Below are positions 1 through 6,000 of a stretch of 64,000 nt of DNA, one piece after another. Source of the DNA: Escherichia coli (GTDB taxonomy: Bacteria > Pseudomonadota > Gammaproteobacteria > Enterobacterales > Enterobacteriaceae); assembly GCF_017348835.2 (NCBI RefSeq), contig NZ_CP071375.1. One strand, given 5' to 3'. Numbering within the stretch: the first letter of the stretch is position 1; each line of letters begins with the position of its first letter. Made by a program: the position numbers.

Positions 1-3000
1 ATACTGAAGCAGCGCACAAAAAATATTGCGCTACCGCCTCACACCCACCAGCAACAGAACCCACCACAGGAAAAGACGGTGGTCAGCATTGCCGTTGATC
101 CGGAGTCTCCGGAATCCTTCATGAAACGACCTAAACGTCGCCGCTGGGTAAATGAGAAATACACACGCTGGGTAAAGACACAGCCGTGTGCGTGTTGTGG
201 TAAGCCAGCGGACGATCCTCATCATCTGATTGGTCATGGTCAGGGTGGAATGGGAACAAAATCCCACGATATTTTCACGCTACCGCTGTGTCGGGAGCAT
301 CACAACGAGCTTCATGCGGATCCGCTGGCGTTCGAAGAAAAGCATGGTTCCCAGGTTGATTTAATTTTTCGTTTTCTTGATCACGCTTTTGCAACCGGCG
401 TGCTCGGGTAAAAGAGGTTACTGATGCGTATAGAGTTTGTTTTGCCTTACCCGCCGACGGTGAACACCTACTGGCGACGTCGTGGCAGCACATATTTTGT
501 ATCAAAAGCCGGTGAGCGTTATCGCCGGGCTGTGGCGCTTATTGTTCGCCAGCAGCGGCTGAAATTAAGCCTGTCCGGACGGCTGGCAATAAAAATTATT
601 GCAGAACCACCGGATAAGCGCCGCCGTGACCTGGACAACATTCTGAAAGCACCGCTGGATGCGCTGACGCATGCGGAAGTGCTCATTGATGACGAGCAGT
701 TTGATGAAATCAATATTGTGCGCGGTCAGCCTGTGCCAGGTGGACGGCTGGGCGTGAAGATTTACGAAATCAGAGGTGGTAACGATGGCGCGTGATATCC
801 AGATGGTTCTTGAGCGATGGGGGGCATGGGCAGCAAATAATCATGAAGATGTAACATGGCCCTCGATAGCTGCTGGTTTTAAAGGATTAATCCCGACTAA
901 AGTGAAATCACGTCCTCAGTGTTCTGATGATGACGCCATGATAATTTGTGGTTGTATGGCACGATTAAACAAGAATAATCAGTATTTGCACGATTTGTTG
1001 GTGGATTATTACGTAGGTGGAATGACATTTATGGCTCTTGCACGTAAGCATAGATGTTCTGATGGGCTTATTGGTAAAAGGCTTTATAAAGCGGAAGGTA
1101 TTATTGAAGGAATGCTTATGGCTCTGAATGTCCGGTTAGATATGGATATGCGGTAGGGATATATAGTGATGAGGGTTATGTTTTCTGTGTTTATAATTAA
1201 CATGTTTATTTTTTGATGGTCATGTATTGTGGAAGGTAGATAAAATGTTGCCTGGTGAATTGAAAATATTGATAATCAATCTTCATCATTAAATAAAAGG
1301 AGTGCTTATGTGGATTGTGTTAGTACTGTCACTGTCAACTCTCAGTTGGCATAAGGTAGTGGCTTTTTCATTGTTGACGGTGTCTGTTGTCCTGGCTGTG
1401 CTTAATGATATTATTGATTGGTCGGTGTTATTTTTTGTTGCTACAATCGTTTTTTTTATTATTTTGAAGTTCAACTGGAAATATAACGCCTGGGCTAAAT
1501 CTATATATGAAGTTGGCATAGTTTTATCAGCCATAGCATTATCTTTCCATCTATGGCCAGGGTTTCACAATCCTGTAGTGCTAAATTCTGTTACTGTTGG
1601 CCCTCAGAGTACTCCCTATACAATGTATTTTAATTTTGATAAAGCGCTGGTGCCATTTTTGTTAGTCCTGTGTACATCTTCTTTGTTTAAAAAAGAAGTA
1701 AAATCAGAAGTGTCTTTGTGGAAGTGGGGGGCTCTGTCGCTCTCTGTTCCTCTTATCCTGTTTTTGGCTGTTTTTTTTGGTGGATTAAAGCCAGAGATTC
1801 ATTTTCCTGAGTGGTTGCCAGAGTTTATATTGGCTAATTTGTTTTTTGTGTCTCTGGCAGAGGAATCATTATTTAGAGGGTATATTCAATCACGGCTATC
1901 AGAAGTAACGTCTCCATTGGTTGCATTAATTGTGGCGGCTTTGTTGTTTGGTTTTTATCACTATTCAGGTGGTGCTTTACTTGTATTATTTGCCACGTTA
2001 TCTGGTGTTGTGTATGGATTGTCATGGATGTGGAGTGGGCGTTTGTGGGTTGCCACCCTTTTCCATTTTGGTTTGAATCTGTGTCACTTGTTATTCTTTA
2101 CCTATCCATTTTTAAAACATAATTGATTTTTTCTATGGTTTTAAATTTATAAGACTGAAAAATAGCAGGACGTGACATTTGCATGAAAAATATGCACGGC
2201 AAAGCATTTACGTACGTAAAAAATCAGGTATGCTGTTAAGAGTGGTTATTTCGCCGCATAGCTTGACCCCGCCTCTGAGCGGGTTTTTTGTGCCCGCAAA
2301 GTAGCGCAGTGCGTTAAATGTGCTGGTAGTTATTAATACAGGTCTTTCAGCTTGCTGGCTTTTTCGGCAAGAGTTATTGGTGTGTCACGTTAACCGGAAA
2401 GGGTAAAAAGACATGCTGAAACAGCAGGATATGACAGAAACCGCCAGAGTTGTGTTTGATGAATTAAGCGTCACCGAACCGGCGACAGTCGGGGAGATTG
2501 CGCAGAATACTTACCTTTCACGCGAACGCTGCCAGTTAATACTGACCCAGCTTGTTATGGCGGGTCTGGCAGACTATCAGTGCGGTTGTTACAGACGCCT
2601 TCAGTCCTGAAGGCTTTTTTATTTGTGGTAAATGGGCGGCTGGTGGGTGTTAGCGGCACCTGTCAGTCCTTTGCTTATGTGTTGATGATAATTTACCTTT
2701 TGGGGCTATAATTGAACTAACCAATTGCTAATGAAAGTAAAATTATAATGGTTGTTGTCTGTTCAGTTATCATGGTTTGCTCCCCAATTAATATTTTTCT
2801 TGAAAAGGATACGTTGTCACTTAAGCCCGGCTCAGTCGTTCTGGCCACCAAATGCATCAGGGCGCTTTTCCTTATGCATTATGGCAAAGTTAAAATTTTC
2901 GATATAAACCATTCCATAGTAAGTCAATATCTGGAAATTCAGCATAAGCTGACAAGAACTCATCTGACTGACGTTCCGCTTTATCTGTCACTGGAACCCA

Positions 3001-6000
3001 ACAACCCTGCGTTGGCTGAGGCTTTAATTACCAGCCAGAGATTTTCCGGAGATACCACGGATATGTTTCTTATGATGGCATGCCTGTCGCTGTTTGAATC
3101 AGATGAACGGATATTATTATTTTTAAGTGGATGTTTATCCAGTATAAGTGCCAAAGTCAGGGCGATAATTCAGACAGATATATCAGCAAGCTGGACGCTT
3201 GGTGCGATTGCGTTACGCCTGCATATGAGTGAGAGTTTGTTAAAGATAAAACTGAAAAATGAAGGGCACATGTTCAGTCGCTTGTTGCTGGAAGAGCGGA
3301 TGCGTGTTGCTGTGAATATGTTATGTTCCCGGCATGGATATGGACAGGCTGTAGCAGAAAAATGCGGTTATTCAAGCTGGTCCTACTTTATTTCTGTATT
3401 TCACCGCTATTATGGCTTCCCGCCAGACAGATATGTATCCAGGCAAGGGCTTGATTATTGATTTTCATCTGATTATTATTTTTTGACCCGGCCCTTTAGC
3501 TCAGTGGTGAGAGCGAGCGACTCATAATCGCCAGGTCGCTGGTTCAAATCCAGCAAGGGCCACCATCACATACCGCCATTAGCTCATCAGGAAAGAGCGC
3601 CAGCTTTCGAAGCTGGTTGCGCGGAGTTCGGGTCCCCGAAGGCGGTCCATTATCTGTATCCTGCGTTGTTAGCTCAGCCGGACAGAGCAATTGCCTTCTA
3701 AGCAATCGGTCACTGGTTCGAATCCAGTACAACGCGCCACACTTATTTTCCCTGGCTCGCTTTTGCGGGCCTTTTTTTTAAATGTCTCACAATTCAGGCG
3801 GTTGACTGTTGTCTGGTTTGCGGGGAGTTTGTTAAAAGAAACTGGCATGGTGAATCCCCCTGTGCGGAGGGGCAATCAGCGAGTAGGTATATGGGATAAT
3901 CGCGGATTCAGGTGCTGGTACTGAATTCACCGGGAGGCACCCGGCACCATGCAATGGCACATAGCGCCACTCTCCAGCCCCTCTCCGGAGGGGCTTTCTT
4001 ATGGACAAAAAAAGCCCGCGCAGGGAGACGCGGGCGGCAAGGAATAAACAACAAAACGTGAAGTAATATTTCAGCTGGCGAATAATATCCGACAGTAATC
4101 ACTCTGCGCAATAGCGCGGCCTTTTTCGTATTGCGGGCTGTTGTCTCTCTTCTGCCATTGTCCTGTAACTTCCGGACTTCAGCCCGCTCCTCATTTTACT
4201 CACAATATTATCCCGGCCGGGAGGATTCATGGCATTTAAACACTATGATGTTGTCAGGGCGGCGTCGCCGTCAGACCTTGCGGAAAAGCTGACACACAAA
4301 CTGAAAGAGGGCTGGCAGCCGTTTGGTAGTCCGGTGGCCATAACCCCTTATACCCTGATGCAGGCGATTGCAGCAGAAGGTGATGTGGTGGTCAGTGGTG
4401 CAACTGAGCCGGATTGGTACTACGTCATCGTACTGGCCGGGCAGTCCAATGCAATGGCTTACGGTGAAGGGCTTCCGCTTCCGGATTCTTACGATGCTCC
4501 GGATCCGCGCATTAAACAGCTGGCGCGCCGCAGCACGGTAACTCCGGGTGGAGAGAGTTGTACGTATAACGACATCATTCCGGCTGACCACTGCCTGCAT
4601 GATGTGCAGGATATGAGTACGCTGAATCATCCGAAGGCAGACCTGAGCAAAGGGCAGTACGGCTGTGTCGGCCAGGGCTTACATATTGCCAAAAAACTGC
4701 TTCCGTATATCCCGAATAACGCGGGGATCCTGCTGGTACCATGCTGTCGTGGTGGTTCGGCATTTACCCAGGGCGCGGAGGGGACATTCAGTGCGGACAC
4801 GGGGGCCAGCCAGGATTCGGCGCGCTGGGGTGTGGGTAAACCGTTATATCAGGACCTGATTGCGCGCACCAAAGCTGCATTACAGAAGAACCCGAAAAAT
4901 GTGTTGCTGGCGGTGTGCTGGATGCAGGGAGAGTTTGACATGAGCGCCGCCACCCACGCACAGCAACCTGCGCTGTTTACAGCCATGCTGACACAGTTTC
5001 GTGCTGACCTCTCCGTGTTTAACGCGCAGTGCCATGGTGGCAGTGCTGCAGATGTGCCGTGGATTTGTGGTGACACGACGTATTACTGGAAAAATACATA
5101 CGCTACCCAGTACGACACCGTGTACGGCGGGTATAAAAACAGGGAGAGTGAGGGCGTTTATTTTGTGCCCTTCATGACAGACGGTAACGGCGTCAATACC
5201 GCCACTAACGCGCCGGCAGAAGATCCGGATATTCCGGCATCAGGATATTACGGTGCGGCATCGAGAACGAATGGAAACCAGGTATCATCAAACCGCCCGA
5301 CACATTTCAGTTCATGGGCGCGCAGGAGCATTATTCCGGATCGTCTGGCAACCGCTATTCTGAACGCAGCCGGGCGCACCTCAGCCTTCATCAGTGGTAA
5401 GGCACCGGAAATTAAACCCTCGCCCGGCGGCAACACGCCATCGGGTCCGTCTGCAGATACGTCCGTTCGCACAATCTCCCTGCTGCCGGCAGCCGGAGAG
5501 GCTGCTGCGCAGGGCTGGAGCATTAAGGATGGCGGAATTCAGTTGTCAGATGGTGTATTTAAGATCACCAAGCAGAGCAATAAAACCTGGTCCCTGACGC
5601 ATCCGGTGGATGACGCAATTACCCTGCTGACACAGGGCGGCAGACTGACCTGTAAGTTCCGCCTGTCAGGCGCACTGACCAACAATCAGTTCGGGCTGGG
5701 GATTTATCTGTATACGGATGCTCCCGTTCCTGATGGTGTGGCGATGACGGGTACCGGTAATCCGTTCCTGATGTCGTACTTCACTCAGACCACTGACGGC
5801 AGAGTGAATCTGATGCATCACAGGAAAGCCGGAAACACGAAGCTGGGGGAGTTCGGCGATTACGGTAACGACTGGCAGACGCTGGAGCTGGTGTTCACCG
5901 CCGGCAGTGCCACGGTTACTCCGAAACTGAATGGAGTGGCTGGCCCGGCATTCCAGGTTATAAAAGACAGTCTGACACTGGGACTGAATGCGCTGACGCT

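Follow-up and report, generated by a model that had tools for sequence, protein, structure and literature searches.

The Q-to-tRNA region of an Sp4-like Escherichia coli prophage is very probably a three-module recombinational mosaic with a Psr-family regulator

The region under study lies near the left end of a 64,000-nucleotide stretch of Escherichia coli contig NZ_CP071375.1 (assembly GCF_017348835.2; hereafter the window), between the late antiterminator gene Q and a cluster of phage tRNA genes, and encodes a CPBP-family intramembrane protease, a small winged-helix protein, and an AraC-like regulator. Our analysis indicates that this region is, very probably, the Q-to-tRNA leader of the late operon of a lambdoid prophage of the Sp4/CP-933M type, that it is a recombinational mosaic of three modules, and that its regulator is a member of the Psr family. 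The initial annotation had instead described the three genes as a single inserted AT-rich island of unrelated cargo of unknown function, occupying the position that carries the toxin in Shiga toxin (Stx) phages. The main value of the present analysis is corrective. This stretch is a standard component that prophages of enterohemorrhagic E. coli (EHEC) widely share. All features below are on the plus strand unless a strand is given.

The stretch is largely already known as the ECs1085–ECs1087 segment of Sp4/CP-933M-type prophages. By BLAST, window positions 1–6202 are 98.9% identical to Sakai prophage Sp4, whose annotation lists an antiterminator (ECs_1084), a CAAX protease family protein (ECs_1085), ECs_1086, and an AraC family protein (ECs_1087), followed by the tRNA genes ileZ1, argN1, and argO1 and by ECs_1088, with pchA (ECs_1091) a few genes further on. 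Prophage CP-933M of strain EDL933 has a matching gene set, and its AraC protein has the same accession (WP_000261909.1) as that of the window. At least 80% of window positions 1100–3500 is carried by 539 genomes among the 5426 complete E. coli genomes examined; identity over this interval reaches 99% or more in 529 records, and 100% identical copies of the 2.4-kb stretch occur in many O26, O111, and other EHEC genomes. The region thus corresponds to a named locus, one gene of which belongs to a characterized family; for the CPBP gene and the small gene no literature was found, and searches on ECs1085–1087, on CAAX proteases in O157, and on CPBP proteins in prophages returned nothing relevant.

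Local BLAST against fetched loci, from which the module limits were taken, divides the region into three segments that differ in both limits and distribution, which argues against one inserted island. The first module (approximately 785–2293) comprises Q, the CPBP gene, and the first terminator. Window positions 1–2293, which span Q, the Q–CPBP spacer, the CPBP gene, and this terminator, are 88% identical to the C311 prophage, which continues with stx1d as its next cargo and lacks both the small gene and the AraC gene. The second module (2207–2684) is a backbone unit made up of a non-coding leader and the 65-residue gene. A segment with terminator, leader, and small gene, beginning at 2207 or 2234 and ending at 2684, is 87–89% identical to K99B, Stx2_EH2201, and phiP27; the unit follows Q directly in EH2201, a GIY-YIG nuclease gene in phiP27, and an ORF6N gene in K99B. 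A DNA methylase gene, rather than an AraC gene, comes next in each of the three, and homology ends at 2684. The third module (2685–3486) is an AraC-like cassette with a promoter-like site, alternating with the DNA methylase cassette. Positions 2279–3780 are 93% identical to EDL933 CP-933O and positions 2268–3780 are 91% identical to phiSTEC1575-Stx2k, both of which carry small gene, AraC gene, and tRNAs but not the CPBP gene. The Q-to-tRNA region accordingly has two discrete exchange slots that flank a conserved leader and winged-helix unit, and several toxin phages carry that unit just upstream of stx.

A 14-nt perfect palindrome, TTTACGTACGTAAA (2207–2220, strand-neutral), on the 3′ side of the CPBP gene marks where the backbone segment shared with K99B begins on the left; it may serve in protein binding or act as a weak terminator. 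It is also kept in the Stx1d prophage of C311 and in the L019 prophage, whose CPBP protein is 59% identical to that of the window. The first intrinsic terminator 3′ of Q (2268–2289; CCCGCC-loop-GGCGGG at 2268–2283 followed by T6) lies at the junction of the first two modules, 1.1 kb downstream of Q. Its homologue is located approximately 70–100 nt 3′ of Q in Stx2_EH2201 and CP-933O, where this slot has no cargo, and 3′ of other cargo in K99B and phiP27.

The non-coding leader (2296–2412; approximately 115 nt) is nearly invariant in an alignment of eight prophages and phages whose Q genes and upstream cargo differ, and it is more conserved than the genes that flank it. RNAalifold folds the leader into hairpins with little covariation, and a search of Rfam with the leader gave no match. 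Sakai Sp6 carries the leader without the small gene after it. The small gene (2413–2610; phrog_331; Sakai ECs1086) encodes a stand-alone protein of 65 residues with weak Pfam matches (TrmB, E = 0.003). A single-sequence AlphaFold prediction gave a mean predicted local distance difference test score (pLDDT) of 52, and the fold was resolved by a family alignment of 26 sequences (pLDDT 91.4), with topology α1-β1-α2-α3-β2-β3. As Foldseek aligns this model with OhrR, SarZ, and other MarR winged-helix domains (template-modeling score 0.8–0.86), the protein is predicted to be a winged helix. The gene is present in Stx2_EH2201, phiP27, K99B, and CP-933O, with ratios of nonsynonymous to synonymous substitution (dN/dS) of 0.14–0.19, and the 65-residue protein encoded upstream of the CP-933O AraC gene is 97% identical to the window protein. 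Small gene and leader together are phage backbone common to Stx2a, Stx2e, and Stx2k phages, and module 2 would be transcribed as part of the late operon. Whereas the window copy of the small gene is intact, those of the O157:H7 strains EDL933 and F8092B are annotated as frameshifted, and an earlier Sakai annotation lists the gene as a pseudogene.

In terms of the regulator, the gene at 2748–3461 (Sakai ECs1087; WP_000261909.1) encodes a 237-residue protein with a C-terminal double helix-turn-helix of the AraC/XylS type that matches HTH_18 (E = 9 × 10⁻⁹), HTH_AraC, and the HilD model; the protein aligns with the YdeO model end to end (residues 1–229, E = 9 × 10⁻³⁰) and with the GadX model over its full length. 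The NCBIfam equivalog cut-offs are not reached (104 bits versus 348 for YdeO; 88.5 versus 500 for GadX), and scores this far below the cut-offs point to a paralogue rather than an orthologue of YdeO and GadX. The protein is reminiscent of PatE (z0321, OI-8), YdeO, GadX, and GadW in its fold and full-length architecture, and the gap below the curated cut-offs is what sets it apart as a paralogue. Sakai ECs_0287, whose location in Sp1 suggests that it is the PatE orthologue, is 37% identical to the window regulator.

From the sequence comparisons, the window gene appears to belong to the published Psr family. PsrA (z1789) and PsrB (z2104, OI-57) are prophage-encoded AraC-like proteins, 90% identical to each other, that raise gadE and yhiF expression and thereby repress type III secretion from the enterocyte effacement locus (LEE); PsrB binds the hdeA and gadE promoters and increases acid resistance, PsrA aids persistence in a ruminant model, and the psr genes are prophage-borne and associated with pch and effector loci (PMC10877973, PMC8565820, PMC4456613). 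The window protein shares with the published pair the AraC/XylS type, the length of 237 residues, and a place between Q and the tRNAs of a lambdoid prophage, and the window context, a lambdoid prophage with a pchA-identical gene and an EspF-like effector gene, fits the published setting. The regulator is, then, the one gene of the three for which a description as cargo of unknown function does not hold, its family having known links to acid resistance, type III secretion, and ruminant persistence.

Which of the two named paralogues it represents was judged from genome position in EDL933, not from named sequences. The identical protein accession occurs in E2865, F8092B, and EDL933 CP-933M, and the 237-residue copy in CP-933O/OI-57, at the position expected for psrB (z2104) in resequenced EDL933, is 91% identical (215 of 237 residues). 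Psr-like genes were found in 725 genomes with a median of two copies, and O157:H7 genomes hold two. EDL933 has one in CP-933O and one in CP-933M, the latter (NZ_CP008957.1: 1266008–1266721) identical to that of the window; by elimination, since the CP-933O copy is in the psrB position, the window regulator is probably PsrA. This assignment has to be set against the reviews, which place psrA (z1789) in OI-50/CP-933N rather than in CP-933M; the part of CP-933N examined in resequenced EDL933 (1625001–1665000) is without an AraC gene after Q. Sakai Sp6 and EDL933 CP-933N were both considered as the psrA locus and set aside, with no AraC gene in the parts examined. The map position published for psrA may stem from the first EDL933 assembly and may need checking against the resequenced genome.

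The best σ70-like site of the region (ATGATA-16-TATAAT, 2685–2712; 10 of 12 positions) lies at the left edge of the psr cassette and is kept in CP-933O and phiSTEC1575-Stx2k. Its placement there fits expression of psr in the lysogen, which the published deletion phenotypes also imply.

Turning to the first module, Q (785–1156) is a QuuD/Q21-like late antiterminator of 123 residues that matches phrog_79 (E = 3.5 × 10⁻⁵⁰) and Q21 structures (PDB chains, E = 7 × 10⁻⁸), has homologues that carry PF06530, and is 84% identical in amino acid sequence to K-12 QuuD. It is intact in the window and annotated as frameshifted in E2865. The CPBP gene (1308–2126) encodes a polytopic protein of 272 residues, homologous to Sakai ECs1085, that matches PF02517 (Rce1-like/Abi intramembrane glutamic endopeptidases; E = 1.4 × 10⁻¹⁹) and phrog_13291. 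All three motifs of the family are present (EExxxR, FxxxH, and HxxxN) and are invariant in 16 homologues that are 48–84% identical to the window protein, the invariant residues being E185, E186, R190, F214, H218, H253, and N257. The active site of this predicted protease therefore appears intact. The CPBP gene has a dN/dS of 0.25 relative to the C311 copy, and all four genes (Q, CPBP, small gene, and psr) are under purifying selection.

The CPBP gene is present in 571 genomes, and the window Q allele in exactly those 571; a PF06530-type Q is again found directly upstream of CPBP homologues that are only 59–62% identical. Q and CPBP therefore form one old module, and for the same reason the AT-rich block is not an insertion 3′ of Q. 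Homologues of the same length that are approximately 50% identical are widespread in Enterobacterales, and those of Dickeya and Hafnia stand singly on the chromosome with housekeeping genes around them; no characterized member of this subfamily of approximately 272 residues was found. A tblastn search with CPBP of 50,697 deposited phage genomes gave no match. On L022 and L023, contigs of metagenome and Sequence Read Archive origin, a CPBP homologue that is 55% identical lies between a PF03589-type antiterminator gene and a holin gene, so that the family recurs just 3′ of late antiterminators even where the antiterminator is unrelated.

The initial annotation had named the three gene products correctly, and PF02517, the AlphaFold and Foldseek results, and HTH_18 bear it out. 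It had also noted that no terminator separates the presumed late-promoter region from the CPBP gene, and indeed no terminator-like hairpin was found in the 151-nt spacer (1157–1307), the presumed late-promoter region, nor was a terminator found in the Q-to-CPBP interval of C311, L019, or L020. Its further statement that each gene is followed by an intrinsic terminator holds for two of the three. Clear terminators lie 3′ of the CPBP gene (2268–2289, above) and over the stop codon of the small gene (2597–2620; hairpin 2597–2614 followed by T6), and the AraC gene has no more than a weak 5-bp hairpin, within the end of its coding sequence. The next good terminator beyond the AraC gene is that on the 3′ side of the tRNAs (3754–3779; hairpin 3754–3771 followed by T8). 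Terminator-like sites are enriched across positions 700–4300, with 13 observed versus 4.0 ± 2.0 in shuffled sequence. After induction, Q-modified RNA polymerase would read through the terminators at 2268, 2597, and 3754 into nanS-p and the lysis genes, as in Stx phages.

As no terminator lies between Q and the CPBP gene, Q-independent expression of the latter is plausible. In the lysogen, CPBP would be made without Q, either from a σ70 promoter in the spacer or from the late promoter itself, and would act as a lysogenic-conversion membrane protease. The spacer contains a σ70-like site (TTGCCT-17-GATAAT, 1248–1276) that is kept, and is better (TTGCCA), in the Stx1d prophage of C311, a perfect TATAAT (1192–1197) with no −35 element, and a GGAG (1299–1302); the spacer of L019 has a near-consensus TTGACA...TATAAT. 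CPBP is kept in O157:H7 prophages in which the late region is broken by IS629 and an inversion (e.g., Sakai Sp4), and this retention, together with the apparently intact active site and the dN/dS of 0.25, points to a benefit for the lysogen. Family members elsewhere serve as bacteriocin-immunity proteins or modulators of sensor kinases, and our best guess by analogy is a role in envelope-level protection or signaling; no partner bacteriocin, kinase, or substrate gene adjoins CPBP. A bolder and rather unlikely reading is that CPBP is the first gene off the late promoter of this Q type and that the ancestral late terminator (2268) has moved to the 3′ end of CPBP. What had been a non-coding leader would then have become a constitutive, Q-independent lysogenic-conversion messenger RNA, the old and strict linkage to Q would reflect this arrangement, and the benefit would lie at the envelope (phage exclusion, toxin immunity, or altered signaling).

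Several observations limit the case for Q-independent expression of CPBP. The Q-downstream DNA of the window, C311, L019, L020, K99B, K-12 DLP12, CFT073, HS, O158:H23, UTME-3, EH2201, and phiP27 was aligned, and no shared motif was found; similarity stops at the Q stop codon, and Q genes 80–84% identical to that of the window have unrelated downstream sequence. Because the late promoter was not located in this way, CPBP could lie upstream of it. An obvious promoter, TTGACC...TATATT, with a terminator after it is seen in K99B but has no counterpart that aligns in the window. A second candidate promoter, TTGCAT-17-AAGCAT at approximately 2180–2214, directly 5′ of the conserved terminator, resembles the post-Q promoter of phiSTEC1575, but its −10 element matches at only 3 of 6 positions and it is not kept in L019. 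In the more distant L022/L023 phage, whose antiterminator belongs to another family, a strong terminator (3831–3856) precedes the CPBP gene. In published RNA-seq data for O157:H7 under SOS-inducing treatment (PMC5931665), which give only fold changes, ECs1085–1087 shift by at most 1.4 log2, Q is unchanged, and Sp4 is not excised. The role of CPBP is itself a guess, with no match in PADLOC and none in the literature.

The alternative is that CPBP is an ordinary Q-dependent late gene, or is read only from the early PR transcript, so that it would be silent in stable lysogens and its position after Q would be meaningless; we consider this possible but on the unlikely side. CPBP does lie inside the late operon, the L022/L023 terminator separates antiterminator and CPBP homologue, and the spacer sites match the consensus at no more than 9 of 12 positions in very AT-rich DNA, where such matches are common. 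The modest rise of ECs1085 after 12 h of an SOS-inducing antibiotic (+1.42 log2, false discovery rate 2 × 10⁻⁵) can be read in the same sense, although Q was not induced in that strain. On the other side stand the terminator-free intervals of the window, C311, L019, and L020, the promoter-like site kept in C311 and the near-consensus one present in L019, and the maintenance of the predicted active site even in prophages with disrupted late regions, which is easier to understand if the lysogen benefits. Whether or not CPBP is expressed in lysogens, as it may be, it is an uncharacterized and clearly maintained gene tied to one Q allele in approximately 10% of complete E. coli genomes, including O157, O26, O111, and O145.

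The single-island interpretation, in which the three genes were inserted as a unit between Q and the tRNAs in the stx position, is far less probable. In its favor, of the 571 genomes with CPBP, 539 have all three genes, and positions 1157–3489 have the lowest G+C content of any 2.3-kb stretch of the window (40.0% versus 52.4% overall; only 0.4% of 2.3-kb windows are as low). The co-occurrence, however, is explained by clonal EHEC lineages with near-identical prophages, as reflected in the 529 near-identical records, and the low G+C content is neither uniform nor confined to the three genes. The low-G+C block starts within Q, not 3′ of it: Q has 41.9% G+C and, at third codon positions, 35.5%, equal to the value for the CPBP gene. 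The spacer has 28.5%, the CPBP gene 38.0%, and psr 42.3%, whereas the small gene has 51.0% and positions 2268–2684 have 49.4% overall. These steps coincide exactly with the module limits, so that composition is cargo-like for the CPBP and AraC genes, as seen in the Q plus CPBP flank and in psr, and backbone-like for the middle gene. An AT-rich block is thus real on average, but it neither begins after Q nor includes the middle gene. The distributions given above separate the genes in the same way: the middle gene and its leader occur without either neighbor in Stx2_EH2201, phiP27, and K99B, CPBP occurs without psr beside stx1d, and psr occurs without CPBP in CP-933O and phiSTEC1575-Stx2k. In place of a single insertion, then, BLAST limits give three modules.

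Nor is the position that of the toxin. In phiSTEC1575-Stx2k, Stx2_EH2201, and phiP27, stx is located 3′ of the tRNAs and their terminator, and EH2201 homology stops at window position 3780 and picks up again beyond stx2B at 3783, which places the stx insertion point at approximately 3781–3782. Neither stxA nor stxB was found in window positions 3740–4228, nor any open reading frame (ORF) longer than approximately 70 residues. A match to the STnc100 small RNA family (RF02076; 138 bits versus a gathering score of 47) lies at 3816–4006, in the stx slot between the tRNA terminator and nanS-p. Sp6/CP-933N, CP-933O, and L020 have STnc100-like sequence in the corresponding position. One phage carries both a Psr-like gene and stx2k, and the C311 prophage both CPBP and stx1d; the CPBP-to-AraC region is not a stand-in for toxin cargo. 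In Stx-converting phages the late region runs in the order Q, late promoter, terminator, ileZ-argN-argO, stx, nanS-p, and lysis genes. The Stx phages phiP27, Stx2_EH2201, and phiSTEC1575-Stx2k share the backbone order of the window, with leader, small gene, tRNAs, and post-tRNA terminator 87–94% identical; they differ from it in that the window has the STnc100-like small RNA gene and no stx in the slot, and in the two variable positions, where the window has CPBP in the first, versus nothing, a GIY-YIG gene, or an ORF6N gene, and psr in the second, versus a DNA methylase gene.

The two AT-rich genes resemble lambdoid morons such as lambda bor and lom, which bring their own promoter and terminator with the gene, in that the psr cassette has a promoter-like site and discrete limits, the CPBP gene is followed by a terminator, and both are below the backbone in G+C content. 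They differ from morons in that CPBP is tied to one Q allele and psr has no clear terminator and may read into the tRNAs.

That the three genes form an anti-phage defense or abortive-infection system, with CPBP as the effector and the DNA-binding proteins as regulators, is very improbable: accessory genes are known to reside between Q and the lysis genes, Abi is the former name of the Pfam family, and both partners are DNA-binding proteins, but PADLOC matched neither CPBP nor the AraC protein and gave the small protein a single marginal match (14 bits, E = 0.0034), the genes are separable modules, the related Dickeya and Hafnia CPBP genes stand alone, and the AraC gene family has a documented host-regulatory role.

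The remainder of the late leader and its surroundings follow the Sp4 pattern. Upstream of Q, the window opens with the 3′ end of a DUF968 gene, followed by RusA (424–795). Downstream of psr, a promoter-like site (TTGATT-17-TATTAT, 3451–3479) lies directly 5′ of the tRNA cluster (3490–3739), which consists of ileZ(CAU) at 3490–3565, argN(UCG) at 3573–3649, and argO(UCU) at 3663–3739. The terminator 3′ of the cluster precedes the stx insertion point of the related phages, and beyond the small RNA gene are a sialate-esterase-type gene (4229–6079) and then the holin and lysozyme genes. The holin–lysozyme segment (6206–8000) is colinear in the window, whereas Sakai and F8092B have it in inverted orientation on the other side of an IS629/IS1203 insertion; the late region of the window prophage therefore appears less rearranged than its O157:H7 counterpart.

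Further into the prophage, a PerC-family gene (9224–9538) encodes a product 100% identical to Sakai PchA, and near the prophage end is a gene for an EspF-like (TccP2-type) effector (32441–33190, minus strand). These features and the neighboring host sequence suggest that the window prophage is Sp4-like and integrated at serT of an EHEC-like E. coli. A tRNA-Ser(UGA) gene is located at 34123–34210 (minus strand), and the ORFs beyond it, judged by their sizes, are presumably the hya and app operons.

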